Notes: generated by a model from the letters alone, not told the origin. Positions 8,864-62,243 are shown, counted from the stretch's first letter. The stretch: DNA of 64,000 nucleotides from an uncultured Actinomycetes bacterium (GCA_963708805.1 CAVPUA010000003.1:750455-814454), one strand, 5' to 3'. Translations and numbers: made by a program.

Positions 8864-8870
8864 CAGGTGG

Positions 8871-9392: not shown

Positions 9393-9441
9393 CGAATCAT
9401 GGGTGCGTTGGTTGCCGTGGGTGAGTAGCCTTACACGGGTA

Positions 9442-9467
9442 GCACCGCGGTGTGCGGTGCTTTTTTC
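9442..9467 (+). promoter_or_regulatory. stem-loop plus T-tract (GCACCGCggtgtGCGGTGC TTTTTT) in the cspB 5' leader/promoter region
   Basis: Perfect 7-bp stem, 5-nt loop, then a T6 run. It lies about 25 nt upstream of the cspB start, in the 99-bp divergent intergenic region. Confidence 0.35.
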
Positions 9468-9491
9468 GTGTTCTGACATCAAGGAGTCTCG

Positions 9492-9869
9492 GTGCCCAGC
9501 GGCAAGGTGAAGTGGTTCAACGCGGAAAAGGGCTTCGGATTCCTGGCCGACGATGACGGCACCGACGTGTTCGTTCACAAGGACGCGCTGCCCAGCGGCG
9601 TCGAGGAACTCAAGCCCGGACAGCGCGTCGAGTTCGGGATCGTCCAGGGTCGCAAAGGCAGTCAGGCGCTGTCGGTGCGCGTGCTCGATCCGGTGCCGTC
9701 GGTGGCCCGGGCCGTCCGCAAGCCGGCCGACGAGATGGCGCCGCTGGTCGAGGACTTGATCAAGCTGCTCGACAACGCGTCGAACTCGCTGCGCCGTGGT
9801 CGCTACCCGGACGACTCACGCAAGATCGCCGGGCTGCTGCGCGCGTTCGCCGACAACCTGGACGCCTGA
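9492..9869 (+). CDS. cold-shock protein with C-terminal extension (CspB-like)
   Basis: KVKWFNAEKGFGFL and VFVH RNP motifs. RBS AAGGAG precedes a GTG start. 125 aa. Confidence 0.9.
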   Translation: MPSGKVKWFNAEKGFGFLADDDGTDVFVHKDALPSGVEELKPGQRVEFGIVQGRKGSQALSVRVLDPVPSVARAVRKPADEMAPLVEDLIKLLDNASNSLRRGRYPDDSRKIAGLLRAFADNLDA

Positions 9870-39413: not shown

Positions 39414-39601
39414 GGGCCTCGCACGTCCTCTCTGACAGTGCCGGCGGTCCGGCCGAACTAGTGACCGGCCATTCACTATGCCGCACACTTTAGGCACCAG
39501 GGAGCCCGCTGGAAAGGGCTGAGGCCGATGAGTAGCCAAAGAAGTGAATAGCGGTTAACGTCTGGACGTCGAGTGAGTCAACGCCACCCGAGGAGGCGCG
39601 C

Positions 39602-41200: not shown

Positions 41201-41208
41201 GGGACGCG

Positions 41209-43191
41209 ATGACCGAGTTCACCACGCAGATCACCAAGCTGCTCGTCGCCAACCGCGGCGAGATCGCCTCGCGGGTCTTCCGCACGGCCCGGGCGATGGA
41301 CATCGCGACCGTCGCCGTGTTCTCCGACCCCGACGCGGGGCTGCCGTTCGTGACCGATGCCGACGAGGCGGTCCGGCTGCCGGGCTCGACGCCGGCCGAG
41401 ACCTACCTGCGCATCGACGCGATCCTGGCCGCCGCGGCGGCAACCGGCGCGGACGCGGTCCATCCCGGTTACGGCTTCCTGTCCGAGAACGCCGAGTTCG
41501 CCCGCGCCTGCGCCAAGGCCGGATTGATCTTCGTCGGCCCGACGCCGGAGGCGATCGAGGCGATGGGCTCGAAGATCGCCGCCAAGCGGCTGATGGCCGA
41601 GGCCGGCGTCCCCGTGCTCCCGGGGGCCGTCTTCGAGGACGAGCCCGACGCGGACGCGTTGGTCGAGGCGGCCGATGCCGTCGGGTACCCCGCGCTCGTC
41701 AAGGCGGCCTTCGGCGGTGGTGGTCGCGGGATGCGCATCGTCGCCGGTCCCGAAGCGATCGTCGAAGCGGTGGCCGGAGCCCGGCGCGAGGCCGCGTCGG
41801 CGTTCGGCAACGGCACGGTCTTCCTCGAACGGTTCGTCGAGTCCCCGCGGCACATCGAGGTGCAGATCATGGGCGACCAGCACGGGACGGTCGTCCACCT
41901 CTTCGAGCGTGAGTGCTCGATCCAGCGGCGCTACCAGAAGATCATCGAGGAGGCGCCGTCGCCGGCCGTCGATGATCGGCTCCGCGCCGAGCTGTGCCAG
42001 GCGGCCGTGGCGGCGGGCCGGGCCATCGGCTACGTCGGTGCCGGAACGGTCGAGTTCGTCCTCGACGCGTCGGGCCGGTTCTACTTCCTCGAGGTCAACA
42101 CCCGACTGCAGGTCGAGCACCCGGTCACCGAACTGATCACCGGGCTCGACCTGGTACGGCTGCAGCTCGACGTCGCCTCGGGCCGCCCGCTACCGCCCGA
42201 GGTCACCGGCGCGACGTTCTCGGGGCACGCGATCGAGGCGCGGCTCTACGCCGAGGACGTCCCCGGTGGCTACCTGCCGACCAGCGGCGACGTGATCACC
42301 TTCGACATCGAGGCCGCCGACGGCCTGCGCGTCGACGCCGGCTTCGCGTCGGGAACCCGGGTGAGCACGTTCTATGACTCGATGCTGGCCAAGGTCATCG
42401 GCTTCGGCCCCACCCGCGACGACGCCCGGCGCGTCCTGGCCGGGGCGCTGGACCGGGCTCGCCTGCACGGCGTGGTGACCAACCGCGACCTGCTCGTCGA
42501 GGTGCTGCGCGAGGCCGAGTTCGGTGAGGGACGCATCGACACCGGCTATCTCGAACGACATCCGTTCGCCGGTGGCGGCGACGCGAACGACGTTCACGTG
42601 CTGGCCGTCGCCCTGTCCGGCCAGGCCGAACGGCGACTGGTCGCGCCGGTGCTCTCGACGCTGCCCTCGGGGTGGCGCAACAACCCGAGCGGCCCGCAGC
42701 GCGCGAGCTACGACATCGCGGGCCGGACGGTCGAGGCGAGCTACCGGCTGATCGGCGACCGGGTCTCGGCCGCGGTCGACGGGCGTGAGCTCGAGGCGAC
42801 CGTACGGGCCGCGGCGGCCGATCGAGTCGATCTCGAGGTCGACGGGGTGCGCCGCGTGATCGAGGTGCGCCACGTGGGCAGCACGTTCTACGTCGACAGC
42901 TCGCTCGGGCACGACACCCTCGTCGAGGCCGAGCGCTTCCCCGACCCGTCGGCCGTGGCCCATGCCGGGTCGCTGCTGGCGCCGATGCCCGGGACCGTCG
43001 TCCGCGTCGACGTCGCGGTCGGCGACCACGTCGAGGCGGGTGCGGCTCTCCTGGCCATCGAGGCGATGAAGATGGAGCACTCGATCTTCGCGCCGACCCG
43101 GGGCATCGTCACCGAACTGCCGATCGCCGTCGGCGCCCAGGTCGACAGCGGCTCGGTGCTCGCGGTGCTCGAAGAGGAGGAGTCGCAATGA
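41209..43191 (+). CDS. acyl-CoA carboxylase alpha subunit (biotin carboxylase plus BCCP; AccA1-like)
   Basis: Intact 660 aa with the ATP-grasp biotin carboxylase and a C-terminal biotinyl domain (EAMKMEH). Confidence 0.85.
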   Translation: MTEFTTQITKLLVANRGEIASRVFRTARAMDIATVAVFSDPDAGLPFVTDADEAVRLPGSTPAETYLRIDAILAAAAATGADAVHPGYGFLSENAEFARACAKAGLIFVGPTPEAIEAMGSKIAAKRLMAEAGVPVLPGAVFEDEPDADALVEAADAVGYPALVKAAFGGGGRGMRIVAGPEAIVEAVAGARREAASAFGNGTVFLERFVESPRHIEVQIMGDQHGTVVHLFERECSIQRRYQKIIEEAPSPAVDDRLRAELCQAAVAAGRAIGYVGAGTVEFVLDASGRFYFLEVNTRLQVEHPVTELITGLDLVRLQLDVASGRPLPPEVTGATFSGHAIEARLYAEDVPGGYLPTSGDVITFDIEAADGLRVDAGFASGTRVSTFYDSMLAKVIGFGPTRDDARRVLAGALDRARLHGVVTNRDLLVEVLREAEFGEGRIDTGYLERHPFAGGGDANDVHVLAVALSGQAERRLVAPVLSTLPSGWRNNPSGPQRASYDIAGRTVEASYRLIGDRVSAAVDGRELEATVRAAAADRVDLEVDGVRRVIEVRHVGSTFYVDSSLGHDTLVEAERFPDPSAVAHAGSLLAPMPGTVVRVDVAVGDHVEAGAALLAIEAMKMEHSIFAPTRGIVTELPIAVGAQVDSGSVLAVLEEEESQ

Positions 43192-43952
43192 CCGAACCCG
43201 TCCAGTACGACGTGGTCAACGGGGTCGCGTGGTTGACGATCAACCGCCCTGAGGCCCGCAACGCGCTCAGCCTGGCCGTCCGGGACGGCCTGTTCACCGG
43301 GGTGCGCCGCTTCAACGCCGACGACGAGGCGAAGGTGCTGGTACTGACCGGGGCCGGAGACCGGGCCTTCTGTGCCGGTGGTGACCTGAAGGAGATGGCC
43401 GACACCACGTTGCGGGTGCCGCCGATCGACTTCGTCCCGCAGTTCGGCCGCAACATCGAGGTCGAGAAGCCGACGATCGCCGCTGTCAACGGGATCGCCT
43501 ACGGCGGCGGGTTCCTGCTCGCCCAGGACTGCGATCTGTGCGTGGCCGGCGAATCGGCCCGTTTCGCGATCAGCGAGGTCAAGGTCGGGCGGGGTTCGCC
43601 GTGGGCGGCTCCGCTCTCGTGGCTGGTGCCGCCCCGCATCGCCATGGAGATCCTGCTGACCGGAGACCCGCTCACCGCCCAGCGGGCGTACGAGGTCGGC
43701 CTCGTCAACCGGGTGGTGCCCGACGCCGATCTGCGCGACACCGTCCAGGCGCTGGCCGAACGGATCGCCACCAACGCGCCGTTGTCGGTCCGCGCCGCCA
43801 AGCGGACGGCCTACCTGTCGGCCCACTTCGAGCTGACCGACGCCTACGACGAGGCCGAACGGATCTGGGAGCCGGTGTATCTCAGCGCCGACGCCCAGGA
43901 GGGCCCGGCCGCGTTCCGCGACAAACGCACGCCCGTCTGGACGGGCCGCTGA
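43188..43952 (+). CDS. enoyl-CoA hydratase/isomerase family protein
   Basis: Intact 254 aa, crotonase fold (AAVNGIAYGGGFLLA). Overlaps the accA1 stop (ATGA). Confidence 0.8.
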   Translation: MTEPVQYDVVNGVAWLTINRPEARNALSLAVRDGLFTGVRRFNADDEAKVLVLTGAGDRAFCAGGDLKEMADTTLRVPPIDFVPQFGRNIEVEKPTIAAVNGIAYGGGFLLAQDCDLCVAGESARFAISEVKVGRGSPWAAPLSWLVPPRIAMEILLTGDPLTAQRAYEVGLVNRVVPDADLRDTVQALAERIATNAPLSVRAAKRTAYLSAHFELTDAYDEAERIWEPVYLSADAQEGPAAFRDKRTPVWTGR

Positions 43953-44750
43953 TGGCCGCCGACCTGACCGCGCTGATCGACGACCTGGTCGCCGAGAGCG
44001 TCGTGATCGACGAGATCATCACACCGCTGAGCCCCGAGCAGTGGACGCTGGCCCACGCCGGCCGAGGGCTGGACGATCGCCGACCAGGTCAGCCACCTCG
44101 CCTTCTTCGACGAGACCACGCTGCTGTCGCTGACCGACCCGGACCGCTTCCGCATCGAGGCCGACGAGCTGATCGCCGGCGGCATGGACTTTCCCGACCG
44201 CGTCGCCGCCCAGCACCACGACCGGCCTGGCGCCGAGTTGCTGGCCTGGTTCGTCCGCGCGCGCCGCGAACTGATCGAGGGCTACCGGGCCGTCGATCCG
44301 GACGTCCGGCTGCCCTGGTACGGCCCGGGCATGGGGCCGGCCTCGTCGGTCACCGCGCGGATCATGGAGACGTGGGCGCACGGCCAGGACATCGCCGATG
44401 CGCTCGGGGTGACCCGGCCGGTGACGAACCGGCTGCGGCACGTCGCTCACCTCGGGGTGCGCAGCCTGCCCTACAGCTACCGCGTGAACGGGCTGGACGT
44501 GCCGTCCGAGCCGATCCGCGTCGAGGTGGCCGCACCCGACGGCGACACCTGGACGTGGGGTCCGGACGCCGCCGCCGATCGAGTGACGGGGGACGCCCTG
44601 GAGTTCTGCCTCGTCGTCACCCAACGGCGCCACCTCAGCGACACCGCGCTCGCGGTCAGCGGTCCGGTGGCCGAGCAGTGGATCGGCATCGCCCAGGCCT
44701 TCGCCGGCGCGGCCGGTACGGGCCGCAAGCCGAGGGGAGACGCGGGATGA
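43952..44750 (+). pseudogene. MDMPI/DinB-superfamily protein (TIGR03084-like), frame-disrupted
   Basis: The N-terminus (MAADLTALIDDL...) and the remainder (ORF 44184..44750) are in different frames, with a shift at about 44060. Confidence 0.5.
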
Positions 44751-46155
44751 GATCGGTGCGGATCGGCAACTCCTCCGGTTTCTACGGCGACCGCAACGCG
44801 GCCTCGCTCGAGATGGTCGAGGGTGGCCCGATCGACTTCCTGACCGGCGACTATCTGGCCGAGCTGACGATGTTGATCTTGTGGAAGGCCAGACAGAAGG
44901 ATCCATCGGCCGGCTACGCGCGCTCGGTGCTCGGTCAGCTCGAACAGGTGCTGGGCACCTGCCTCGATCGCGGGATCAAGATCGTCAACAACGCGGGTGG
45001 ACTCAATCCGGCCGGCCTGGCCGAGGAGCTGACCGCCCTGGCCGAACGGCTGGGTCTGCACCCCAAGATCGCCTACCTGACCGGTGACGACCTGCTGCCC
45101 GACCTCGACGCGCTCATCGCCGCCGGCCACGACCTGGCCCATCTCGACACCGGGCGGCCCCTCGCCGAGGCGGGCGGCAAGCCGGTGACGGCCAACGCGT
45201 ATCTGGGCGCGTGGGGCATCGTCGACGCGCTGGGCTCGGGAGCCGACATCGTCGATCTGCCCGCGGGTCACCGACGCCTCGCTCGTCGTCGGGCCGGCCG
45301 CCTGGTGGCACGGCTGGGCCCGCGACGACTTCGACCAGCTGGCCGGCGCCGTGCTGGCCGGCCACGTGATCGAGTGCGGACCGCAGGCCACCGGCGGCAA
45401 CTACTCCTACATCGACGAGATCGTCGATCGTCGCTATCCGGGCTTCCCGATCGCCGAGGTGGCCGGCGACGGCAGCTTCGTGATCACCAAGCACGACGAA
45501 CACCGGCGGTCTGGTCTCGGTCGGCACCGTCACCGCTCAACTGATGTACGAGATCGCCGAGCCGGCGTACGCGAACCCGGACGTCATCGCCCACTTCGAC
45601 ACCGCCCAGCTCGATCAGGTCGGCCCGGACCGCGTGCGGTGCTCGGCCACCATGGGCAGCCCGCCACCGGCCACCACCAAGGTCGCGATCAACTTCGTCG
45701 GCGGCTACCGCAACACGATGACGCTCGTCCTGACCGGTCTCGACATCGAGAAGAAGGCGGCGTGGGCGACCGAGGAACTGTTCGGCATCCTCGGTGGGCG
45801 CGACCAGTTCGGCGAGGTCGACGTGCGGCTGATCCGCTTCGACCGTCCGGACGCGCCGACCAACGAGCAGGCCACCGCGCATCTGCGGATCACGGTCAAG
45901 GACGCCGATCCGCGCAAGGTCGGACGGCGGTTCTCGAACGCGACGATGGAGCTCGCGCTCGGCGGCTACGCCGGGTTCCACACCACGACGCCGCCGTGCG
46001 GCGAGAGCGCGTACGGCGTCTACTGGCCGGCCCTCGTCCCCGCCGACGCGCCCCGGCACACGGTCGTGCGGCCGGACGGCAGCACGAAGTTGATCGCGCC
46101 GACGCCGTCCGGTCCGGTGCGGTACTCGGCGATCGTCCGGCCCGATCGACTATGA
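44747..46155 (+). pseudogene. acyclic terpene utilisation AtuA-family protein (DUF1446), two frame disruptions
   Basis: MRSVRIGNSSGFYGDR N-terminus. Shifts at about 45260 and about 45510. ATGA overlap with the upstream gene. Confidence 0.65.
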
Positions 46156-48094: not shown

Positions 48095-49188
48095 TGTTGT
48101 GACCTGACACGTTGTGTCAGGTTGCGAGCCGGCTGGTGGGTGGGTGTCCGCCGAGGGCGGAGTGGCCGCGTCGAGTGTTGTAGTAGTGCAGGAAGCGGTC
48201 AAGGCCTTGGCGGCGGAGGTTGTTGCTGGTCCAGGGTCGGGCGTAGGCCCATTCGGTGAGCAGGGTGCGGTTGAATCGTTCGGCTTTGCCGTTGGTCCAG
48301 GGGCAGCCGGGTTTGGTGAAGCGGCGTTTGATTTGCCAGGCCGAGCAGACCCAACCCCAGTCGGTGCCGTGGCGATAGACCAGGGCGTTGTCGGTCAGAA
48401 CACGGCGCACGCGGATGCCGTGGCTGGCGAACCAGGCCAGGGCGCGGTGCAGGAACCCGGCGCTGGTCGGGTCTTTCTCGTCGGCCAGCACTTCGGAGTA
48501 GGCCAGGCGGGTGTGGTCGTCGATGGCGGTGTGGACGTAGTCGTAGCCGATCTTCGTTTTCTTGTGCCGGTTCGTGACCGACACTGCGGCGTCACGGCCG
48601 TGCAGGCGCCACCCGCCGCCGGTGGGGATCTTGCCCAGCTTCTTGACGTCGACGTGGATCATCGCGCCGGGACTGGGATGCTCGTAGCGGTTTTCGCTGC
48701 GCCGGGAGGCCCGGACCCGCTCGCCGGTGATCGGGTCGATCGCCGCCAGATGCGGTACCTGGTGGCGGGCCAGGATCCGGCCGACCGTCGAGGCGTTCAG
48801 GCCGAGCTCGGCCGCGAGCACGACCGCTCCTCGCTTGCGTCGCCGCCGCGCGCTCAGAACACGCTGCTCGATCCGTTTTGGGGTACGAGCCGGCATCCGC
48901 CGCGGCCGCGAAGAACGATCGCGCAGCCCACCATCACCGCCCTCAGCGAAGCGACGAACCCACTTGTTCACGGTGGCGCGTGAGACGCCCAGTTGCTCGG
49001 CGACATGAGCTGGCGGCCAACCCGCCGCCACACGATCGACCATCAACCTGCGCGAGAACGGCGTCGTACGAGCGTTAGCGTGAGCCATAGAGGACCTCCT
49101 GCGGGTGAATGCCTAGACACATCCACTCCGTCAGGAGGTCCTCCCACGATCAAGCAGGCTCGCCGTAACAACCTCTCGGGTCACGACA
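48095..49188 (-). mobile_element. IS481-family insertion sequence, 1094 bp, with 6-bp target-site duplication TCTAGC
   Basis: Imperfect terminal inverted repeats (TGTGACC...GTTGT at both ends). An identical TCTAGC flanks both ends at 48089-48094 and 49189-49194. The internal GC content is lower than the surroundings. Confidence 0.8.
48117..49088 (-). CDS. IS481-family DDE transposase
   Basis: Intact 323 aa with an N-terminal HTH and an rve integrase core (the typical IS481 DDE triad region). Confidence 0.85.
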   Translation of the reverse strand: MAHANARTTPFSRRLMVDRVAAGWPPAHVAEQLGVSRATVNKWVRRFAEGGDGGLRDRSSRPRRMPARTPKRIEQRVLSARRRRKRGAVVLAAELGLNASTVGRILARHQVPHLAAIDPITGERVRASRRSENRYEHPSPGAMIHVDVKKLGKIPTGGGWRLHGRDAAVSVTNRHKKTKIGYDYVHTAIDDHTRLAYSEVLADEKDPTSAGFLHRALAWFASHGIRVRRVLTDNALVYRHGTDWGWVCSAWQIKRRFTKPGCPWTNGKAERFNRTLLTEWAYARPWTSNNLRRQGLDRFLHYYNTRRGHSALGGHPPTSRLAT

Positions 49189-51863: not shown

Positions 51864-52115
51864 GGCGGTTCCCCTCTGTTACTTCACGTGTGCTATGTGT
51901 TAAGATATGCTAGACAGACACAGCAAGGCAATACAGCAATAAGCCTGAAGTCCGACGTGAAATACGTGCTAGAAAATTTCCACAAAGACGTTCAGTCGGC
52001 GTCAGATGTGGGAAGACCGCTTCGTGGAGGGACGGCGGCCTGAATCCGGGTCGCTACCACCGTGACCGGCAGCCATGGCGCCGCCGGGTCGCAGCCATCC
52101 AGCTGGAGGTCGATC

Positions 52116-52523
52116 GTGCCCGTGTCATGCCCCCCGTCACGCCCGGCCAGCCGCCTGGCGGTCGGCGATCGCGTGATCATCGGCGATGGCCCCGCCTCGG
52201 GGATGGTCGGTGAGCTCGCGGGCGTCGACTTCGACACCGACTTCGCCCAGGTCCGCGTGATGATCCCCGTTCCCTGGGGTCTGCGACCGGGCACGGCCGT
52301 CGTCACGGCCGGCGCACTGCGTCCAGCCCGTCCTCGGCTCGACGAGCTGATCGAGCCGGTTGCCATGCCCCGGCGGGGACGCCCGCGGGTCATCAGCGAG
52401 GAGACCGTCGAGAAGATCGAGCGGCTGTACGAGACCGGGATCTACTCGCACGCCGACATCGCCGGCATCGTCGGCGTCAGCAAGAGCAGCGTGACGTCCT
52501 ACCTCAAGCGGCGCAGCGACTGA
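52116..52523 (+). CDS. hypothetical protein with C-terminal resolvase/transposase-type HTH
   Basis: GTG start after GGAGG. C-terminal RGRPRVISEETVEKIERLYETGIYSHADIAGIVGVSKSSVTSYLKRR. Confidence 0.4.
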   Translation: MPVSCPPSRPASRLAVGDRVIIGDGPASGMVGELAGVDFDTDFAQVRVMIPVPWGLRPGTAVVTAGALRPARPRLDELIEPVAMPRRGRPRVISEETVEKIERLYETGIYSHADIAGIVGVSKSSVTSYLKRRSD

Positions 52524-53036: not shown

Positions 53037-53291
53037 TCACTTCCAGCGGAAGTGGACGAAGACCCGTCCGAAGTTGTCCGAGTCCTTCTCGACGCGGTGA
53101 TAGAGGGCCTTCACCTCTTTACGATCGAGGAAGCGGAGAACGCGCTTCTTCAACTGGCCCGAGCCCTTGCCGGGGATGATCTCGACCAGCGGGGCCTTCT
53201 TGGCCACCGCTTCGTCGATGATCGACTTCAGTGCGCGCTCGATGTCGTCACCGCGGTTGTAGATGTCGTGCAGGTCCAGCTTGAGCTTCAC
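53037..53291 (-). CDS. stand-alone Smr-domain protein
   Basis: GTG start after GGAGGA. KLDLHDIY...IIPGKGSGQLKKRV matches the Smr domain (LDLHG...HGKG). Codon GC is lower than in neighbouring genes. Confidence 0.55.
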   Translation of the reverse strand: MKLKLDLHDIYNRGDDIERALKSIIDEAVAKKAPLVEIIPGKGSGQLKKRVLRFLDRKEVKALYHRVEKDSDNFGRVFVHFRWK

Positions 53292-53390
53292 GCCGTCATC
53301 GTCCTCCGGGGCCGCGACGGCGCTCGCGGCAGGAGCAAGATGATCGAGTCGGCCCGGCTCGAGAGGATCAGGCGCGTGGAGATGTTGGCG

Positions 53391-54038
53391 ATGACCGACA
53401 GCGTGTGCGGGGATTTCTTGCGACTCGCTCTGGACGCCGACTCGGGCAAGCTCCGGCACACGGGAGTATTGGCCGAGGCGATGCGCGGCGCGCTGCTCAT
53501 CGACCTCGCTCGAGCGGGGCGGCTGAACGAGAACGGCCCCGGCGCCCAGGTCGACACCACGCCCACTGGGTTCGGCCTGGCCGACGAGCTGATCCGTGCC
53601 GTCGAGGAGCACCCGACTCGCAACCTGCGGATCTGGATGCAGCGCGGGGTGCCGCACCTGCACGAGTTCATCGCCGAGCTCGTGGCCGACGGCTTCTGGA
53701 CGGTCGAGCGGCGAGATCTGACGCTGGCCGCCCACTACCGCGACAGCAGCGCGGCGCGGTACCAAGCGCTCTTCGAGGCGATCGCCGCGGTCGTCCGCGG
53801 TGAGCACGCGCCGGCCGACCCACGGCAGGCGGCGCTGGCCGCACTCGCCACCGTCACCAGCCTCGTCGATCCCGGTCCGAGCCTGCAGCATCCGAGCCCA
53901 GCACTGCTCGAAGCCAGCGGTGACCTGCGCTGGATCACCACCCAGGTCACCGACTTCCTGCTCGACGCCCAGGCCGAGGACGGCGCGGCGGGAGCCGCGA
54001 ACACGATCACGACGGGGATTCAGCTCGGCTCGATCTGA
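53391..54038 (+). CDS. GPP34/GOLPH3-family protein
   Basis: MTDSVCGDFLRLALDADSGKL...ALLIDLARAGRL matches the family N-terminus. The alternative upstream ATG at 53340 is less likely given RBS spacing. Confidence 0.55.
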   Translation: MTDSVCGDFLRLALDADSGKLRHTGVLAEAMRGALLIDLARAGRLNENGPGAQVDTTPTGFGLADELIRAVEEHPTRNLRIWMQRGVPHLHEFIAELVADGFWTVERRDLTLAAHYRDSSAARYQALFEAIAAVVRGEHAPADPRQAALAALATVTSLVDPGPSLQHPSPALLEASGDLRWITTQVTDFLLDAQAEDGAAGAANTITTGIQLGSI

Positions 54039-54247
54039 CTCGTTCCCCGGTGTTCATCCAGTCGTTCGAGGGTCAGCGCCATGGGCGACGACCCGTTTGC
54101 GGGGCTGTTGCGCGATCCCGACCTCGGAGTGCTGAAGGCGATGCCCGTGCAGGAATCCGGTCCGCCGCGCCGGGCGCTGCGCGGGATGGGCCGCTGACGG
54201 GACGACGTCCTGACCGATCTCGTCGGCGGCACGGCATAGTTGGGGTC

Positions 54248-55651
54248 ATGGCTCTTCGTGGTGGTGCCGTCCCTTCTCGTTCGCCCCGAGCTCCACGGGA
54301 GACCGACCCGTTCGCGGGCATGGCCAACCCGGCGCTCGAACGCGAGATCAATCCGCCGATGCGTGCTCTGGCCCACGATGCCGTGCCGCCCGACGTGGCC
54401 TACCAGTTGGTGCACGACGAACTCCTGCTCGACGGCAGCGCCCGGCTGAACCTCGCGACCTTCGTCACCACGTGGATGGAGCCGCAGGCGGCCCAGTTGA
54501 TGGCCGAGTCGCTCGACAAGAACATGATCGACAAGGACGAGTACCCGCAGACGGCGGCGATCGAGAACCGGTGCGTGGCGATCCTGTCGAACCTGTGGCA
54601 CGCGCCTGACCCCGAGGTCGCGACCGGTTGTTCGACGACCGGGTCCAGCGAAGCCTGCATGCTGGCCGGCATGGCCCTCAAGCACCGCTGGGCCGCTCGG
54701 GTCGGCGCCGACTCGGGCCGCAAGCCCAACCTGGTGATGGGTGCGAACGTCCAGGTCTGCTGGGAGAAGTTCTGCCGATACTGGGACGTCGAACCGCGTC
54801 TGGTACCCGTCGAGGGCGATCGGCTGCACCTGGGCGCCGAGCAGGCAGTGGCCCGGTGCGACGAGAACACCATCGGCGTCGTCGCCATCCTCGGCTCGAC
54901 CTTCGACGGTAGTTACGAGCCGGTCGCCGAGATCTCGGCCGCTCTGGACGAGCTGGTCGCGCGGGGCGGACCCGACATCCCGATCCATGTCGACGCGGCA
55001 TCGGGCGGCATGATCGCCCCGTTCCTCGACCCCGATCTCGTGTGGGACTTCCGGCTGCCGCGTGTCGCGTCGATCAACACGTCCGGACACAAGTACGGAC
55101 TGGTCTACCCGGGCGTCGGCTGGGCCGTCTGGCGTGACGCCGAGGCGCTGCCGCAGGAGCTCGTGTTCGACGTCAACTACCTGGGCGGCAACATGCCGAC
55201 GTTCGCGTTGAACTTCTCGCGTCCGGGCTCCGAGATCATCGCGCAGTACTACACGTTCTTCCGCCTCGGCCGCGCCGGCTATGTCGCTGTCCAACAGGCG
55301 TGCCGGGACGTGGCGACCTCACTGGCCGAGCAGATCGCGAACCTCGGCCCGTACCGGTTGATCACCCGCGGCGACCAGTTGCCGGTCTTCGCGTTCACCA
55401 CCGATCCGGACGTGCAGGCCTGGGACGTCTTCGCGGTGTCGCGGGGGTTGCGCGAGCACGGGTGGCAGGTCCCGGCCTACACGTTCCCCGCCGAGCGAAC
55501 CGATCTCGCCGTGCTGCGAATAGTGTGCCGCAACGGCTTCTCGCGCGACCTGGCCGACCTCTTCCTGCGTGACCTGATCGCCGTCACCGACACGTTGCAG
55601 ACCGACGTCGCCAAGGTCGGGAGCAGCGGCCCGCCGTCGTTTCATCACTGA
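54248..55651 (+). CDS. gadB: glutamate decarboxylase (PLP-dependent)
   Basis: Strong GAD-family similarity (RLNLATFVTTWMEPQA, NTSGHKYGLVYPGVGW). The ATG at 54248 is chosen within ORF frame 54050..55651. Confidence 0.85.
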   Translation: MALRGGAVPSRSPRAPRETDPFAGMANPALEREINPPMRALAHDAVPPDVAYQLVHDELLLDGSARLNLATFVTTWMEPQAAQLMAESLDKNMIDKDEYPQTAAIENRCVAILSNLWHAPDPEVATGCSTTGSSEACMLAGMALKHRWAARVGADSGRKPNLVMGANVQVCWEKFCRYWDVEPRLVPVEGDRLHLGAEQAVARCDENTIGVVAILGSTFDGSYEPVAEISAALDELVARGGPDIPIHVDAASGGMIAPFLDPDLVWDFRLPRVASINTSGHKYGLVYPGVGWAVWRDAEALPQELVFDVNYLGGNMPTFALNFSRPGSEIIAQYYTFFRLGRAGYVAVQQACRDVATSLAEQIANLGPYRLITRGDQLPVFAFTTDPDVQAWDVFAVSRGLREHGWQVPAYTFPAERTDLAVLRIVCRNGFSRDLADLFLRDLIAVTDTLQTDVAKVGSSGPPSFHH

Positions 55652-56157: not shown

Positions 56158-57258
56158 GTGGACTGTACGAGGGCGCTCGCGCAGACGGGCGTGGCTGTGT
56201 CGGGCATCGCCCTGGCCGGTCTGGTCGTGCTCGTGGTCGGCGTCGCCCTGACCGTTGCCGCTCGCCACCGAACCACCGGGCGAGCACACCATGCGCTGGT
56301 GATCGGGATCATCCTCGTGCTGTTGCTGGCCCTCGACCCGCGATCCAGCGGCGCGGCGACATCCGCGTCCTGTGCCCAGTCTCCGGCGTCCCCGCCCGCG
56401 TACGCGGTGACCCGGCCGGTGTCGAGCTGTGACCGTGTCACGCTCAGCGCCGACCGCGCCAGTGCCGAACTGGGCTCGCCGATCACGTTCGTCGCCTCGG
56501 CGCCGACCGGTCTGGCGCCCGGCGTGGTGACGTTCTGGGACGGGACCCGGACGCTGGGGACGGTCGGCGTCCAGGCGGGGTCGGCCGTCCTGTCGATCGA
56601 TGGCCTCGGTGTCGGCGCGCACCGCGTGTTCGCGACGTTCACTCCGGTGGTCACGGCCAGCTGCGTACCCGATGGCTCGGTCGCGCTGATCGTGATCGTC
56701 AATGGCACCACGGCGGGCTCGGGCGGTAGCTCCGACGGCGGAGACGTACAAGCGATCCAGGCCAGGATCGGCGCGGGGATTCTTCTCCTGCGCAGTCCCT
56801 ATGACGCCGAGCATCCGCTGGACCTCGGTGTCTTGCGATTGGCCGGATCGGCTGATCAGTACGTCGGGAGGGCTCAGTTCGGAGACGGCTCCGTCTCCGG
56901 CAGTCTCTCGATCATCGACACCCGCGGTGGTGACGCCGGGTGGACGGTGTGCGTCCAGGGCGGCGACCTCGGCGATCCAGCCGGCGACCTCGTGTCCGGA
57001 TCCAACTTCGGCTTCATCAACGTCGCAGCCATCAGTTGGCCCGGTGGTCCTCGGGTGACAGTGGGTGACCGGGCAGGGCCGACGACGGCTGTGGCACCGG
57101 GTACCGCCATCGGCCTCGGTGCCGGCCCGCAGGTGATCGCGCGCTCGGTCGGCTCGGGGGCGGGCACGGTCGGGCTGAGCGGTCTTGTCACCCTGGTCGC
57201 CCCGCTTAGCAGCGCGCCCGGGACGTACTCGGGAACGCTCACGTTCACCGTCGGATGA
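56158..57258 (+). CDS. membrane-anchored protein with bacterial Ig-like domain
   Basis: Two N-terminal hydrophobic segments. Ig-like block VTFWDGTRTLGTVGVQAGSAVLSIDGLGVGAHRVFATFTP. Gly/Ser-rich. Confidence 0.4.
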   Translation: MDCTRALAQTGVAVSGIALAGLVVLVVGVALTVAARHRTTGRAHHALVIGIILVLLLALDPRSSGAATSASCAQSPASPPAYAVTRPVSSCDRVTLSADRASAELGSPITFVASAPTGLAPGVVTFWDGTRTLGTVGVQAGSAVLSIDGLGVGAHRVFATFTPVVTASCVPDGSVALIVIVNGTTAGSGGSSDGGDVQAIQARIGAGILLLRSPYDAEHPLDLGVLRLAGSADQYVGRAQFGDGSVSGSLSIIDTRGGDAGWTVCVQGGDLGDPAGDLVSGSNFGFINVAAISWPGGPRVTVGDRAGPTTAVAPGTAIGLGAGPQVIARSVGSGAGTVGLSGLVTLVAPLSSAPGTYSGTLTFTVG

Positions 57259-57319
57259 CCGAACGTGTAGCTTGATCATCAAGACGCCTGGTCATGTTTG
57301 ACGAGCCGCTTGGCTGCTT

Positions 57320-58453
57320 TCAGCCGCGCCGGATCGCGGCCTGCTCGGGCGTGCGGGCGACGAACTGTGGGCCGGTGACCTCGGTGTCGTAGTAGCGGTG
57401 GAACACCGGCGTCAGCGCGCCGCTGATCGGCGGGACGATCCAGCTCCAGTCCGCGGGGCACCGCCGACCGGCCCGCTCCTCCTTCTCGACGTGGGTCAGG
57501 AAGCGGCGCGACTCGGTGTGGTGATCGGCGATCGTCACCCCGGCCTGCGCGAACGAGTGCAGTACGGCCCGGTTGAGCTCGATCACCGCGCGGTCACGCC
57601 ACAAGGTCTGCTCGGATGACGTGTCGAGGTGCAGCCGCTCGGCGATCGTCGCCGTCAGGTTGTAGCGGTCGTGGTCGGCCAGATTGCGGGCGCCGATCTC
57701 GGTGCCCATGTACCAGCCGTTGAACGGCGCCGAGGAATAGGTGACGCCCCCGATGCGCAGCGCCATGTTGCTGATGGCGGGCACGGCGTGCCACTTGAGT
57801 CCCAGTTCGGCGAACCACGCGTGATCGGGGTGCGACAGGTGCACCTCGAGGATGTCGGCGTCCGACAGCTCGAACAACGTCGGCGGTTCGTCGCCCGTCT
57901 CGATGACGAGGGGCAGCACGTCGAAGGCCGAGCGGACCTCGGGGGCCCGCCACCCCAGTTGCTGCACCCGCTCGGTGAACCGCGCATACCGGGGATCGCC
58001 CAGCGGGCCGGCGTCCTCGGTGGGGTAGCCCGCATAGCGGATCAGCTGCTCGTTCCAGATCGTCGGTCCGGGCTGCCCCGGTTCGTCCGGCGCGAAGACG
58101 CTGACCACCGGTCGGATCCGGCCGCCGTTGGCCGCGATCCGCAGGTGGGCCCGGCAGTGATCGGCGATGCCTTCCGCGCTTGTGACATTGCGCAGGTCGC
58201 GCACGTACAGGCTGTTCCAGTAGAGCCGGCCGATGCAGCGCGCGCTGTTGCGCCAGGCCACCCGGCAACCCCAGATCAGTTCGGAGTTGGTGTGCCGGTA
58301 GGTACCGGTCTCGAGGATGGACGTGGCCACCTCGGCGGTGCGCACGACCCGGTCTCCGGCGGTCGGGTTCTCGGCATGGAACTGGTCGACGAACTCGAGC
58401 GCTTCGTGGAGGTCGACCCCGGACGATCGTTCGGTTGCTGCCTCTGCGTGCAC
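57320..58453 (-). CDS. nos: bacterial nitric-oxide synthase oxygenase domain protein
   Basis: Heme-thiolate motif WRNSARCIGRLYW, GWYMGTEIGARNL, and ADWSWIVPPISG. The GTG start is 2 nt after the upstream gene's TGA. The first roughly 130 codons of ORF 57320..58846 are an out-of-frame overlap and are excluded. Confidence 0.85.
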   Translation of the reverse strand: MHAEAATERSSGVDLHEALEFVDQFHAENPTAGDRVVRTAEVATSILETGTYRHTNSELIWGCRVAWRNSARCIGRLYWNSLYVRDLRNVTSAEGIADHCRAHLRIAANGGRIRPVVSVFAPDEPGQPGPTIWNEQLIRYAGYPTEDAGPLGDPRYARFTERVQQLGWRAPEVRSAFDVLPLVIETGDEPPTLFELSDADILEVHLSHPDHAWFAELGLKWHAVPAISNMALRIGGVTYSSAPFNGWYMGTEIGARNLADHDRYNLTATIAERLHLDTSSEQTLWRDRAVIELNRAVLHSFAQAGVTIADHHTESRRFLTHVEKEERAGRRCPADWSWIVPPISGALTPVFHRYYDTEVTGPQFVARTPEQAAIRRG

Positions 58454-58455
58454 GA

Positions 58456-60045
58456 TCAGCCGACCATCTCGAATTTGTCGAAGTGGATCTTGGCACGCGG
58501 AACGCCGCTGTGGACCAGCTTGCTGACCGTCGTCGAGATCATCGGATCCGGCCCCGAGACGAGCACATCGACCCCCATCGTCGCCCAGTCCCGCAGTCCG
58601 GGCACGATCTCCTCGACCCGTCCGTGATAGCCCTCGTAGGCCGGATCGTCGGACAGCACGGCGTGCACTTCGGCGTTCAACCAGTAACCCCCGGCGTGGA
58701 TCAGCTTGGCCAGCTTGTCGACGGAATAGGTGTCGTCTCGAGATCGGCCCCCGACGAACGTGTACAGCTGCGGTGCGTCGGGCCAGCCGAGGATCGACTC
58801 GACGACGGCCGTGATCGGTGCGGCCCCGGTGCCCGACGCGACGCACAACAGGCCGCCCGGAACGGTGCCGGGTTCGACCACGAGATCGTTGCCCCTCGGC
58901 GGCCCGAGCGTGAGACGGTCACCCGGCTGGGTGTGGGCGACCAGCGCCGACGAGACGCCGGACCCACCGAGCGCGCGGACTTGGATGTCGAAGGTGTTGT
59001 CGGCGCGCGGCGCGCTCGCGATCGACATCGAGCGCCACTCCCGGCGGAACGCGGGCACCTCGAGCGTGAGGTACTGGCCGGCCTTGTACGGGTACGGCGC
59101 GTCGGGCTGGATGCGAAGGACGGCGAAATCGCGCGAGAGTCGCTGATGATCGAGGACCTGCGCGCCCCACGACGTGGGCTCGCCCGCGTGCTGCATGGCG
59201 CCGTCGATCATGATCGTGGCGAGCCGCGTGTAGCTGCCGACGATGGCCGCCTCGTGTTCATCGGTCCACTTGTTGCCGGCCAGCCGCTTCCAGGCGCTGA
59301 TCATGGCGGCGCCCGCGACCTCGTAGTGCCGGGGTTCGACGTCGAACTTCCGGTGATCGGCCCCGAGCTGTTCCAGGTGCGCGGTCAGGCCCTGAGGATC
59401 GTCGGCGACCACCCACTGGACGACGGCCCGGCCGAACTCCTGACGCTGCCGGGTCATGCTCGACGGGAACATGAACGGAGCCTCGGGCACGCGCAGGAAC
59501 AGCTCGGCGTAGAAGTCCGAGATCAGCCGGTCGGCCCGGTCGCTGACGAACGAGAACGCTTCGCGCACCAGCGCCGGATCGAAGTCGCGCTGGTTGGCCG
59601 GGAAGACGGGCTTGGGCGGGGGCGGCGGTGTCTGGGCGACATAGAACTCGGGCAGGTTCGGAGGCGGAAGGCGTCGTTGCGCATTGCCGACGACCAGCTC
59701 GCCCGGGGCGGCGATCGGCGGGGCCGGGGCAGCCGGTACCGGCGCCGGTGCGACGGCGGCGGGCGGTGCAGGTAGCTCGGTGTCCGCGTGGGGTGGGCCG
59801 GGCACCTCGGCTTCGAACGACTCCGGCCTCGGGTGCGCGCTAAGCGACGTCGTCCAGCTCGTCGACCCGTCCGGCGACGGTGAATCGGTGGGCGGTTGGC
59901 CCGCCCCGCGTTCGTGTCCGTGCTGCGGCGCCGAGTAGTCGTCGTCGAGGAGCCATCGCCGTAGTGCACCGCGCAATCCCACCGGACACCCCCTGTTCAG
60001 GACCGCGCGCAACGCACTTGGCCTCATACCACGCGTGTCGGCCAC
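58456..60045 (-). CDS. flavohemoglobin-like protein (globin plus FAD/NAD(P)-binding reductase) with Pro-rich N-terminal extension
   Basis: Globin block (DPALVREAFSFVSDRADRLISDFY...HYEVAGAAMISAW) followed by FNR-like block (AGQYLTL...GTGAAPI). Roughly 140-aa Pro-rich N-terminus; the exact start is uncertain. Confidence 0.75.
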   Translation of the reverse strand: MADTRGMRPSALRAVLNRGCPVGLRGALRRWLLDDDYSAPQHGHERGAGQPPTDSPSPDGSTSWTTSLSAHPRPESFEAEVPGPPHADTELPAPPAAVAPAPVPAAPAPPIAAPGELVVGNAQRRLPPPNLPEFYVAQTPPPPPKPVFPANQRDFDPALVREAFSFVSDRADRLISDFYAELFLRVPEAPFMFPSSMTRQRQEFGRAVVQWVVADDPQGLTAHLEQLGADHRKFDVEPRHYEVAGAAMISAWKRLAGNKWTDEHEAAIVGSYTRLATIMIDGAMQHAGEPTSWGAQVLDHQRLSRDFAVLRIQPDAPYPYKAGQYLTLEVPAFRREWRSMSIASAPRADNTFDIQVRALGGSGVSSALVAHTQPGDRLTLGPPRGNDLVVEPGTVPGGLLCVASGTGAAPITAVVESILGWPDAPQLYTFVGGRSRDDTYSVDKLAKLIHAGGYWLNAEVHAVLSDDPAYEGYHGRVEEIVPGLRDWATMGVDVLVSGPDPMISTTVSKLVHSGVPRAKIHFDKFEMVG

Positions 60046-60225
60046 AGACGGTAAGACACGCGCACCAGTGAGTAACAGGTTACAGGCGAATAACGAGAAG
60101 AAGGAAGATCAACAGCTGAACTGTGCGGACCGGACCAAGATCAACTCTCCGGAGCGGTCCGCGCTGCCAGTTTCCGACATGTTAGATTCGAGTTAAGTCG
60201 GGGGCCGTCGACCGAACGGACTTCC

Positions 60226-60771
60226 ATGCGCTCGACCACCCTGCGCGCCTTGCTCGCTCTGAGCGTGACGGCTGGCGTCGTCGCCATCGGCTTCGTCGCG
60301 AACGGCTTCGTCGCGAACGGCGTCGTCGCCCGCTCACCGCACTCCGCTCCCGCGAACGCCCCCGCCGCTGTCGCGACGCCGGTCAACGGCGAGACGGTGG
60401 GCGTGGATCCGCTCGTGAGCGAGGGCCAACTGATCGCGTTCAGCGTGGACGGGTTCGCACCCGGGGCGGTGGCGACACTGACGCTGGAATGCCAACCGCT
60501 CGCCGCGACCTCCATTCGGGTCGACGCCGCCGGTACGGTGCGAGTCAGCTTCACGGTGCCGGCGCTGGCGCCCGCCGGATATCTCCTCGCGGTCACTGGG
60601 CCGTCCGCCGCGGTGCCGGGCGGCACGTCGGCGGGCGTGGTCGACGCGACGATCCCCCGTGCGGCGTTCTATCCGTTCGAGGTCACCGCGACCTCGACCC
60701 GCGGCTCGTCCGCCGGTCACCAGAACGGTTCATCAGTTCACGGCCGTTGCACCGGTGTCGTTCTAAAGTAG
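60226..60771 (+). CDS. secreted hypothetical protein
   Basis: Signal peptide MRSTTLRALLALSVTAGVVA. Internal 15-bp direct repeat encoding GFVANGFVANG. Confidence 0.45.
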   Translation: MRSTTLRALLALSVTAGVVAIGFVANGFVANGVVARSPHSAPANAPAAVATPVNGETVGVDPLVSEGQLIAFSVDGFAPGAVATLTLECQPLAATSIRVDAAGTVRVSFTVPALAPAGYLLAVTGPSAAVPGGTSAGVVDATIPRAAFYPFEVTATSTRGSSAGHQNGSSVHGRCTGVVLK

Positions 60772-60929: not shown

Positions 60930-62243
60930 TCAGGCCGCGTCGGCCGACGCGGTTGCGATCCGGTTGCGGCCGTCGCTCTTGGCTCGATACAGCGCGGCGT
61001 CGGCTGCGTGCATCAGCTCGGTCACCGTCCCGCCGCCATGCGGGTAGGTGGCGATGCCGATCGAGACCGAGAGATCGTTGATCAACCGCGGTCCGTCCGG
61101 GTGCTCGGCGTAGGTGTCGAGCACGGTCACGCCGTGTCGGATCCGCTCGGCGACCGTGTGCGCCTCGGACTCGCGGGCGCGCGAGAGGAGCACCACGAAC
61201 TCCTCGCCGCCGAACCGCCCGACGGCGTCGTTGTCGCGGACTTCGCCGGTGATGCAGTTGGCCACCGCGCGCAGCACTTCGTCGCCGTTGAGGTGACCGT
61301 GCTGGTCGTTGATCCGCTTGAAGTGGTCGAGGTCGATCATCAGCACGCTCAGGGTCGCGTCGGCGCGGTTGGCAGCTTTGGCCAGCTCGCGACTCGCGCG
61401 ATAGTGCCAGCTCGCCGCGTTGAGGACGCCCGTCTTGTGGTCGAGGATCGCGGTCGTCTCGAGCTCCCGGTTGAGCAGGCCGCGGTGCAAGATCATCAGC
61501 GGCGGGAGGATCGCGATCGACACCGCGGGCAGGGTCACCATGACGAGCGCGACGATCACCGCGAGGCAGAGGGTCGCGACCTCGAGGAAGTTGTCCGGCC
61601 AGCTGCCGATCACCTCGTGCACCGAATGCGTACGGGCCCAGATGGTGGGGACGACGAGTACGGCACCGATGAGGAAGTAGACCGCCAGCGAGGCGGACAG
61701 GGCCAGTATCCCGTCGGTTCCGCGGTCGGTCGCCTGCTTGATGCCGCTGACGCCGAACAGGTTCAGGACGGCTCGCGCGAGATAACACGTCAGGATCACG
61801 AAGCAGGTGTTCATGATCGAGCGGTACAGCGTGATCTCGCGCAATCGGTACCAGCTGCGCACACTCAACTGCAGGTACAGGAGGACGACCAGAGCGGCGA
61901 CGAGGATCGGCGGCAGCAGCAGTACGCCGGCGAATGTCCAGACCGACGTCAAGTTGATGTGTGCGGTGTCGGTGAGTTGTCGCCGCATGCGTTCGGTCTG
62001 TCGACCGATCTCGGCCTGGGCGATGCCCAGCGCCGTCAGGCCGGCGAGCACCACGAGATCGTGCCATTGGACTGTGGTGTCCCTCGCAATGACCAAAGTC
62101 GACGCGACAACGGTGGCTTCGACCAGAAGAATATAAGCGACTATCGACCGCGGTTGCGCCCATAACGCCCACGAAAATCGTCGGCGCACCACAGAAGAGG
62201 GCCAAGGGCCCTCGCTCGCGGAACTTAAATCAGTAATACTCAT
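60930..62243 (-). CDS. membrane-bound GGDEF-domain diguanylate cyclase
   Basis: About 7 TM helices N-terminally. C-terminal GGDEF with intact GGEEF A-site and the RxxD I-site region. Confidence 0.85.
   Translation of the reverse strand: MSITDLSSASEGPWPSSVVRRRFSWALWAQPRSIVAYILLVEATVVASTLVIARDTTVQWHDLVVLAGLTALGIAQAEIGRQTERMRRQLTDTAHINLTSVWTFAGVLLLPPILVAALVVLLYLQLSVRSWYRLREITLYRSIMNTCFVILTCYLARAVLNLFGVSGIKQATDRGTDGILALSASLAVYFLIGAVLVVPTIWARTHSVHEVIGSWPDNFLEVATLCLAVIVALVMVTLPAVSIAILPPLMILHRGLLNRELETTAILDHKTGVLNAASWHYRASRELAKAANRADATLSVLMIDLDHFKRINDQHGHLNGDEVLRAVANCITGEVRDNDAVGRFGGEEFVVLLSRARESEAHTVAERIRHGVTVLDTYAEHPDGPRLINDLSVSIGIATYPHGGGTVTELMHAADAALYRAKSDGRNRIATASADAA

Follow-up and report, generated by a model that had tools for sequence, protein, structure and literature searches.

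A 64,000-nt stretch of DNA from an uncultured Actinomycetes bacterium (GCA_963708805.1 CAVPUA010000003.1:750455-814454), referred to here at its full length as the window, carries on its minus strand the gene of a bacterial nitric-oxide synthase (NOS) directly behind that of a flavohemoglobin-like protein, in which a globin is joined to an FNR-type reductase (globin-reductase). The region is high-GC (about 69%) actinobacterial DNA, and the two open reading frames (ORFs) lie head to tail, in different frames and with a stop codon between them (Table 1). Direct reading of the junction on the minus strand gives GAG ATG GTC GGC TGA tc GTG CAC GCA, so the NOS start codon (GTG 58453) follows the TGA of the globin-reductase gene after 2 nt, as an earlier note made from this sequence had stated. 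With so short a gap, neither a promoter for NOS alone nor a good Shine-Dalgarno sequence can be accommodated, and NOS is probably translated by ribosomes that finish the globin-reductase gene and then reinitiate. In the closest relative (L044; L numbers denote loci other than the window) the junction reads TGA-ac-GTG, with the same 2-nt spacing. The pair is bounded downstream by the convergent gene of an Ig-like protein and upstream by a divergent gene (60226-60771, plus strand), and it therefore forms a two-gene unit that is presumably co-transcribed.

The NOS protein matched Pfam NO_synthase (PF02898) with E = 3e-147 over profile positions 7-358 of 362, and Geobacillus NOS (2flq) with E = 7e-108. 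The heme-thiolate motif WRNSARCIGR is present (WRNSARCIGRLYW aligns with 2flq; pattern WRNxxRCIGR), as are the substrate motif GWYMGTEIGARN and the substrate-binding Glu pattern GWYMGTEIG, where FNGWYMGTEIGARN aligns with 2flq. A bacterial-type Ile stands in place of the mammalian Val beside the heme, with RIGG opposite EIGG of 2flq. The protein has neither a reductase domain nor the N-terminal Zn/pterin hook (377 aa, with the alignment beginning at residue 15-18, opposite eNOS 60-88); it is an oxygenase only, in agreement with the first description. The sole upstream alternative start, GTG 58846, was rejected, as it would overlap the globin gene by 390 nt; no further in-frame start lies between GTG 58453 and the onset of NOS homology, and the identical protein (P0121) is likewise called at 377 aa in the public record. 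The NOS gene is intact.

The start of the first gene had to be revised. It had been placed at 60045 (529 aa), but the homologues' starts, the Shine-Dalgarno sequence, the GC content at third codon positions (GC3) and the public record all point to GTG 59982 (508 aa). In detail, the homologues begin with the conserved residues MGLRxALxRWL (M-G-[LMI]-R-x-A-L-x-R-W-L among 81 family members), and the Shine-Dalgarno-like GGGGGT upstream of this GTG has an equally spaced equivalent, GGAGGT, in L044, L001 and L002. GC3 is 0.67 across the ORF's first 30 codons, 21 of which precede GTG 59982, and 0.77-0.93 beyond. The exact 508-aa protein is in the public record (NCBI/ENA), from which the 529-aa version is absent.

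From the revised start, the globin-reductase has a Pro-rich N-terminal extension of 134 aa, somewhat shorter than the roughly 140 aa first estimated. It contains 23% Pro, compared with 6.7% in the core of the protein, and is coding, because its GC3 is high (0.77-0.90) and single tblastn high-scoring segment pairs cover residues 1-506 in several relatives. An artefact of choosing the longest ORF was ruled out by this coding GC3 together with the conserved motifs, the conserved Shine-Dalgarno sequence and GTG, and the public gene call. Two conserved motifs frame a variable linker. In motif 1, M1, G2, R4, L7, R9 and W10 are at least 70% conserved among the 81 family members, and AlphaFold2 (AF2) predicted a helix at residues 3-12 with a per-residue confidence (pLDDT) of about 65. 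Motif 2, GELVVGNAQRRLPPPNLPEFY in the window protein, is conserved in the 81 sequences at G94, L96, V97, V98, G99, R104, L110, P111 (invariant), F113 and Y114. The pLDDT was <50 for residues 13-79 and 90-104, and family members differ in the length of the extension, from 41 to 198 aa. A search with the extension alone against 1.84 billion representatives returned two low-complexity matches and one family fragment and no other protein context; the extension is not a module common to other proteins. It is atypical for Hmp, as had been remarked, yet it is a trait of the whole family. Since it also occurs in members without a nearby NOS, it is not a NOS-specific adaptation, and a function as a NOS-docking element was rejected on the same ground.

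Table 1. Features of the NOS/globin-reductase locus, of its surroundings in the window and of selected related loci.
Feature	Position	Strand	Remarks
Nitric-oxide synthase, oxygenase domain only	57320-58453	minus	377 aa, GTG start; Pfam NO_synthase
Stop/start junction TGA-tc-GTG	58451-58458	minus	direct reading; 2-nt gap
Globin + FNR-type reductase gene (flavohemoglobin-like)	58456-59982	minus	508 aa, GTG start, TGA stop 58458-58456; Pfam, AF2/Foldseek
N-terminal motif 1, residues 1-11 (MGLRGALRRWL)	59950-59982	minus	predicted short helix, basic/hydrophobic pattern
Pro/Ala-rich linker, residues 12-93	59704-59949	minus	length and sequence variable, predicted disordered
N-terminal motif 2, residues 94-114	59641-59703	minus	family consensus GxLVVGxAERRxPxxxLPxFY
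Globin domain, about residues 135-264	59191-59580	minus	Tyr158 (B10), Phe172 (CD1), Gln179 (E7), Phe183 (E11), His210 (F8), Tyr220 (G5)
FAD-binding beta-barrel, about residues 275-365	58888-59160	minus	Pfam FAD_binding_6; R317-S-M319-S320 replaces RxYS
NAD(P)H-binding domain, about residues 381-485	58528-58842	minus	Pfam NAD_binding_1; G384-T-G-A-A-P389
Shine-Dalgarno-like GGGGGT	59988-59993	minus	about 5-7 nt upstream of GTG 59982
Divergent intergenic region, operon to plus-strand gene 60226-60771	59983-60225		AT-richer than surroundings
Conserved upstream footprint, candidate promoter	60077-60106	minus	alignment of five clade-A upstream regions
Ig-like protein gene (Big_3_5, sub-threshold)	56158-57258	plus	convergent, downstream flank
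Pyridoxal-phosphate-dependent glutamate-decarboxylase-like gene	54050-55651	plus	downstream flank of operon
GPP34-family gene	53052-54038	plus	downstream flank, unconserved in related loci
Resolvase-type HTH_7 fragment	52062-52523	plus	mobile-element remnant
IS481-family transposase (rve_3, LZ_Tnp_IS481)	48117-49088	minus	mobile-element remnant
GGDEF diguanylate cyclase, hydrophobic N-terminal half	60930-62243	minus	about 0.9 kb upstream of operon
PPOX-type gene in related loci	L045:7176-7826; L047:7152-7832; L048:3760-4407	minus	divergent; about 20 more among L004-L027
Tandem globin-like ORF + globin-reductase, example	L031:8001-8378 and 8451-9566

Domains and cofactor residues of the globin-reductase

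Pfam Globin, FAD_binding_6 and NAD_binding_1 all matched the product of the upstream gene, which confirms the initial assignment as a globin plus an FAD/NAD(P) reductase, and a C-terminal H500-F-D502-K-F504 lies just past the NAD(P)H-binding domain. Its residues were compared by alignment with Hmp of E. coli (from MG1655) and FHP of R. eutropha, and within a family alignment of 81 sequences. H210, Y158, Q179, F172 and Y220 match Hmp H85, Y29, Q53, F43 and Y95, respectively, and are invariant across the 81 sequences; Phe183 (E11), which replaces the Hmp-type Leu, is also invariant. In the flavin site, W316, R317, M319 and S320 are invariant in the family, with Hmp Tyr206 opposite Met319. When the two motifs singled out earlier for comparison with Hmp were inspected, GxGxxP was found (GTGAAP, residues 384-389), and RxYS was not, its place being taken by RSMS (317-320), a family-invariant RxMS. 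The C-terminal Phe is retained (F504 corresponds to Hmp F390), and Asp502 corresponds to Hmp Glu388. The earlier note had named the loss of key heme or FAD residues as a ground for giving up its proposal; the five heme residues just listed (H210, Y158, Q179, F172 and Y220) are retained, and so are the Arg and Ser of the FAD motif, with Tyr changed to Met.

The closest solved sequences are the flavohemoproteins 1cqx/3ozu (E = 4e-19). An AF2 model from the 81 sequences had pLDDT >90 for residues 130-503, with helices across 136-264, and its best Foldseek matches were full-length flavohemoglobins (1gvh, 6o0a, 1cqx and 4g1b). The TM values were 0.66-0.79 to 1gvh, 6o0a and 1cqx, and the match to 1gvh (E = 5.5e-21, TM 0.79) extended over 401 columns. 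The window protein is filed here as a divergent actinobacterial flavohemoglobin-like protein that keeps the NO-dioxygenase residues but stands outside Hmp proper.

Recurrence of the gene pair

A scan of species-representative genomes yielded 43 loci, about 30 of them with close, N-extended members of the globin-reductase family, which together with the window and L044 make about 32. The about 30 loci from the scan are exclusively from Pseudonocardiales or Jatrophihabitans-like metagenome-assembled genomes (MAGs). Ten of the about 32 have an adjacent NOS; these ten show four arrangements and fall into two separate clades. About two thirds of the family have no NOS within 8 kb. Clade A comprises six loci with the globin-reductase followed by NOS, separated by 2 nt in the window and L044 and by 50-90 nt in the rest. 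The four loci of clade B are convergent (L015), divergent (L018), co-directional (L017), or have NOS behind a divergent PPOX gene (L016). In the tree of the globin-reductase core, NOS-less clades stand between clades A and B. Inside clade A, the tree of the globin-reductase matches that of NOS, which indicates inheritance of the pair as a unit. The translational coupling proposed earlier thus holds for the window and L044, but not for the relatives with spacers of 50-90 nt.

The upstream regions of clade A also share a conserved element. The AT-rich promoter region previously placed at 60046-60225 is indeed AT-richer (55.6% GC versus about 69% around it), although the real intergenic stretch is 59983-60225. 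Within it, the alignment of five clade-A upstream regions revealed a footprint with the invariant block TTC..GTTA..CTGTAAnCT, made up of TTCCTT (-35-like, 60106-60101), 18 nt and TAACCT (-10-like, 60082-60077), lying about 95 nt ahead of the start codon; a single copy of CCTGTAANCT is present in the window, versus 0.05 expected. This footprint is a candidate promoter or operator. A consensus promoter/terminator scan of 57000-60400 found none, which is uninformative for a 69% GC actinobacterium, Rfam gave only a sub-threshold chance match in its search, and folding of the 61-nt convergent spacer past NOS gave no significant terminator (z = -1.6).

Viewed from NOS, the pairing is more widespread. 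A metagenome scan with the window NOS gave 80 loci, and the count was made on the 42 independent ones that had 2.5 kb or more of DNA upstream. A co-directional globin-reductase lies upstream of NOS in 21 of these 42, with gaps of 63-1158 nt; the chance expectation for this adjacency we take to be far below 1%, such genes being few per genome. The partners in the metagenomic loci are 370-395 aa long, lack the extension and share only 30-35% identity with the window protein; their heme residues are unchanged, and they carry RxMS, RxFS or RxYS by subfamily. Identity of the window NOS to its counterparts in Pseudonocardiaceae, Nocardioides and Kribbella is 64-68%, and to that of clade B about 50%; by this difference the NOS of clades A and B are not sisters. 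In the NOS tree the linked loci spread over at least five separate clades, and the clade-A NOS is sister to a clade with a short-type partner in the arrangement PPOX, divergent globin-reductase, NOS. Two histories could account for this. The short-type PPOX arrangement could be ancestral, with the window family as a fast-evolving, extended descendant, or NOS could have re-associated with different globin-reductase genes; either history would imply selection for the NOS/globin-reductase pairing.

The pair is also present in cultured bacteria. Embleya sp. NBC_00888 and NBC_00896 have the globin-reductase followed by NOS, and on a plasmid of Micromonospora zamorensis NBC_00407 (NZ_CP107937.1, 203 kb; L131:4878-7300) NOS comes first and is followed by a globin-domain gene with a 1-nt stop/start overlap. 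On this plasmid a hypothetical gene, a tryptophan 2,3-dioxygenase and a class V aminotransferase come after the pair, and these genes may make up a small biosynthetic or catabolic cluster. NOS stands without a globin-reductase neighbour in Kutzneria, in Amycolatopsis, where it is part of a biosynthetic cluster, and on pR1CP1 of Rhodococcus opacus. The pairing is not obligatory. The comparison of neighbourhoods called for by the earlier note nevertheless came out in favour of its proposal, as the pairing recurs in many lineages, with several globin-reductase subfamilies, in both gene orders and with some tight junctions. Functional coupling of NOS and the globin-reductase is strongly supported by this comparative evidence.

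The commonest neighbour of the globin-reductase family is a divergent gene for a PPOX-type FMN flavoprotein (Pfam PNPOx_N), found in about 20 loci and nowhere in the 64-kb window. Its product is about 216 aa long, with TIGR04025 ('MSMEG_1061 family') as the nearest NCBIfam model, below cutoff; no solved relative was found for it by sequence. The gene adjoins both the extended and the short globin-reductase subfamilies, and in L016 NOS lies within the PPOX operon. As an FMN relay, the PPOX-type protein may form a third part of the system.

One NOS clade has a gene for a DivIVA-domain coiled-coil protein between the globin-reductase and NOS (L073:5320-5934, plus strand; also L064, L066, L069 and L121).

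Possible roles of the globin-reductase beside NOS

Two roles had been proposed for the globin-reductase, a dedicated electron donor for NOS and an NO dioxygenase. While the functional coupling common to both found support, the donor role as such was neither supported nor refuted, and the sequence appears to suit the NO-dioxygenase role better, because the five distal and proximal heme residues named above are invariant, the predicted fold can be laid over Hmp for about 400 columns and syNOS offers a precedent. With a little more confidence than doubt, we read the pair as a two-gene NOS/NO-dioxygenase operon that would lead from arginine to NO to nitrate by way of two polypeptides. In detail, a promoter about 95 nt upstream of GTG 59982 would drive a single transcript, and ribosomes ending the globin-reductase at its TGA would restart 2 nt on at the NOS GTG, with both proteins made together. 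NOS would convert L-arginine to citrulline and NO; in the globin-reductase, electrons would pass from NAD(P)H through FAD to the globin heme, which in its ferrous-oxy state would turn NO into nitrate. Nitrate would thus be the product of the pair, and the producer's own NO would stay low. The Pro-rich extension may serve as a flexible tether tipped by a short basic, hydrophobic helix, which would hold the enzyme to the membrane or to a partner and would not be catalytic.

The precedent is syNOS of Synechococcus PCC 7335, which has the order globin - C2 - NOS oxygenase - flavodoxin - FNR, and whose globin domain is an NO dioxygenase that together with the FNR domain 'resembles Hmp' (PMC12922734, PMC6104048, PMC9500659). 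As in the window, a globin, a NOS oxygenase and an FNR-type NAD(P)H/FAD module are combined, and syNOS puts arginine nitrogen into nitrate (PMC6104048, PMC9500659, PMC12922734). Unlike syNOS, the window has two polypeptides, with the globin fused to FNR as in Hmp and NOS alone; Pfam found neither flavodoxin/FMN nor C2 domains in the pair, and without the C2 domain Ca2+ control is not expected. Moreover, the window globin-reductase has its 134-aa disordered Pro-rich extension, and the host is an actinobacterium, not a cyanobacterium.

With type I flavohemoglobins (Hmp/FHP/Yhb1) the window protein shares the three-domain architecture, the fold, the five heme residues (Tyr-B10, Phe-CD1, Gln-E7, His-F8 and Tyr-G5), GxGxxP and the C-terminal Phe, while it differs in its identity of about 20%, in RxMS, Phe-E11 and Asp-F7, and in the long N-terminal extension. 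Its gene is coupled to an NO-producing enzyme, whereas Hmp is induced by external NO through NsrR/NorR-type control, and no control of that type was identified at the window operon. In the NOS of Sorangium cellulosum an FNR-type NAD(P)H/FAD module is reportedly fused to NOS, with a 2Fe-2S domain as relay; the FNR module of the window, in contrast, lies on a separate protein and is fused to globin. The Sorangium enzyme has been described as a self-sufficient bacterial NOS (as cited in PMC9500659). In staphylococci, NOS and the flavohemoglobin also share an NO pool, and nitrate/nitrite affects respiration and hmp expression, but this NOS-Hmp axis works from unlinked, separately regulated genes (PMC10594633, PMC5539425), while the window genes form one predicted unit with a flavohemoglobin of divergent actinobacterial type. 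The NasC-Bjgb-Flp system of Bradyrhizobium likewise co-expresses an NO-detoxifying globin and a flavoprotein reductase within the cluster of an NO generator (PMC4724949); there, however, the NO source is the assimilatory nitrate reductase and not NOS, and globin and reductase are separate proteins.

Several points weigh against an NO-dioxygenase operon. The flavin-stacking Tyr of RxYS is Met in the window protein, Leu-E11 and Lys-F7 of Hmp are Phe and Asp, and Glu-H23 of the proximal His-Glu-Tyr triad has no better counterpart than an Asp, in an ambiguous alignment in which HMMER pairs FHP E137 with D260 (at least 90% conserved) and MAFFT places Hmp E135 at a gap. Identity to the solved flavohemoglobins is about 18-21%, and the score against the Hmp equivalog NF009805 is 89.4 bits, below its cutoff of 432 bits (108-134 bits for the other NOS-linked homologues); it is from residues alone that we infer NO-dioxygenase activity. 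The 50-90 nt spacers of most relatives could house promoters of their own. The scan of the ORFs at 37-64 kb (1-37 kb unscanned) turned up no genes for assimilating or respiring nitrate or nitrite, nor any for arginine or pterin, and the proposal leaves open how a cell would benefit from destroying NO at the rate of its production. Finally, actinobacterial type II flavohemoglobins have been reported as disulfide or D-lactate oxidoreductases, not NO dioxygenases (PMC8883573).

The purpose and the electron source of bacterial NOS are debated beyond a few model Firmicutes and biosynthetic clusters, and for a large group of soil actinobacteria the recurrent, often translationally coupled pairing offers a concrete hypothesis that can be put to the test. 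If the NO-dioxygenase operon is real, NO would be made there to become nitrate, or made under tight self-protection, and the arginine-to-nitrate route, so far represented only by the fused cyanobacterial syNOS, would gain a modular two-protein form. A divergent flavohemoglobin family with an RxMS flavin site and a disordered Pro-rich arm is brought to light, together with the PPOX-type FMN protein as a possible third partner, and the cultured carriers (Embleya sp. NBC_00888 and NBC_00896; Micromonospora zamorensis NBC_00407) make the hypothesis directly testable. No description of a NOS/flavohemoglobin gene pair was found in the full-text literature searched, including the reviews PMC9500659, PMC6950321 and PMC3820574, with subscription journals outside this coverage, and NOS-guided genome mining reports biosynthetic-cluster contexts only (PMC10831120). 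The chemistry and both enzyme classes are known; new are the widespread modular, often translationally coupled actinobacterial arrangement and the extended RxMS subfamily.

A doubtful alternative is a dual role, with the pair as a split self-sufficient arginine-to-nitrate synthase in which the reductase domain serves both hemes within a NOS/globin-reductase complex. The evidence for NO dioxygenation applies here as well, as does that given below for a dedicated reductase; in addition, one reductase module serves the NOS and globin hemes in syNOS (PMC12922734), and the agreement of the clade A trees marks the pair as inherited together. Worked out further, and just as doubtfully, the partner would bind the NOS dimer, supply electrons from NAD(P)H and dioxygenate the NO, with the PPOX-type protein as FMN relay where linked and the Pro-rich arm as tether to the membrane, and the whole would be a counterpart or precursor of syNOS. 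The objections to a dedicated reductase count equally against this proposal; a physical complex is without in-silico or experimental support, and the extension, the obvious candidate for docking, is shared by the NOS-less family members.

That the globin-reductase is solely a dedicated reductase, feeding electrons to NOS in a complex, from the FNR domain directly or through the globin heme, with the globin as relay or regulator, is unlikely. The NOS of the window does lack a reductase domain, and the tight stop/start junctions, seen in both gene orders, suggest a fixed proportion of the two proteins, as for a complex. The pair also equals the syNOS domain inventory minus the flavodoxin domain (PMC12922734), and the linked PPOX-type FMN flavoprotein of many related loci could provide the missing FMN step. 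However, no PPOX gene is present in the window, closely related NOS genes have no such partner beside them in Kutzneria, Amycolatopsis and R. opacus, and about two thirds of the close globin-reductase family is found away from NOS. The strict conservation of Tyr-B10 and Gln-E7, residues of O2/NO chemistry, is unneeded for an electron relay. Because the heme of flavohemoglobins has a considerably higher potential than the NOS heme, electron transfer from one heme to the other is unfavourable. Furthermore, bacterial NOS has been reported to use non-dedicated cellular reductases (Gusarov 2008, as cited in PMC9500659).

It is improbable that the globin-reductase is a non-NO enzyme, that is, a type II-like heme disulfide, mycothione or D-lactate oxidoreductase linked to NOS through a shared redox/nitrosative-stress regulon. 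Like the type II proteins MtbFHb (Rv0385) and MsFHbII, it is an actinobacterial globin-reductase outside the Hmp clade and the Hmp equivalog, with an altered cofactor site (here the FAD motif). Type II flavohemoglobins are reported as membrane-associated (PMC8883573, PMC6950321), MtbFHb when expressed in E. coli (PMC8883573), which suits an extension that tethers to the membrane. The thioredoxin-reductase-type motif D(x)8GxxP is stated to be conserved in all type II flavohemoglobins, and the D-lactate-dehydrogenase-type motifs G(x)7GS and A(x)7AxN are missing from most type II members too (PMC8883573). A regular-expression search for these three motifs found none in the window protein, which has G(x)8GxxP (GLLCVASGTGAAP, from residue 377) where type II has D(x)8GxxP. 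It is by these published motifs only that the window protein is set apart from type II, for which neither an extension nor NOS linkage has been reported. The short NOS-linked homologues do carry D(x)8GxxP; a homology search with one of them returned Pseudonocardiaceae names only, none mycobacterial. Against a non-NO enzyme also stand the retained carboxylate/Tyr-G5/His-F8 set and distal Tyr/Gln, and the repeated linkage to NOS specifically, independent of arrangement, which indicates NO chemistry.

Adjacency without function, through chance or a recent insertion of NOS beside an unrelated housekeeping gene, is very improbable: local synteny is otherwise unconserved, mobile-element remnants lie 4-9 kb away and many family members have no adjacent NOS, but half of the 42 counted NOS loci are paired, the pairing is spread over at least six separate NOS lineages and over several subfamilies of the globin-reductase, it occurs in both gene orders, and junctions of 1-2 nt exist.

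Surroundings of the pair

None of the window neighbours (glutamate decarboxylase, Ig-like protein, small secreted protein, GGDEF protein and a major facilitator superfamily protein) is conserved beside the pair in relatives, and they were dropped as candidate parts of the system for this reason. The two mobile-element remnants, the IS481-family transposase and the resolvase-type fragment, fit this lack of conserved synteny. The GGDEF gene is set apart from the operon by the small plus-strand gene at 60226-60771, and a link between NO and cyclic di-GMP is only a thought. Farther away, genes at 37536-46155 for an acyl-CoA synthetase, a carboxyltransferase, a biotin carboxylase (MCC-alpha type), an enoyl-CoA hydratase and an AtuA-like protein resemble leucine or acyclic-terpene catabolism and are unrelated to the pair.

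Other variations were seen around the globin-reductase in related genomes. In L031-L036 (Actinoallomurus, Actinomadura), a separate globin-like ORF lies directly upstream of the globin-reductase, giving two tandem tblastn matches, with no NOS inside the 8-kb flanks. The homologue at L028:8001-9255 is in two frames, split near 8413, as a frameshifted pseudogene or through a MAG assembly error. In the Jatrophihabitans clade a DUF2277 gene comes after the globin-reductase (L045:9579-9851, plus strand; also L022, L023, L025 and L027), and the database protein P0110 is an apparent fusion of a globin-reductase with DUF2277.

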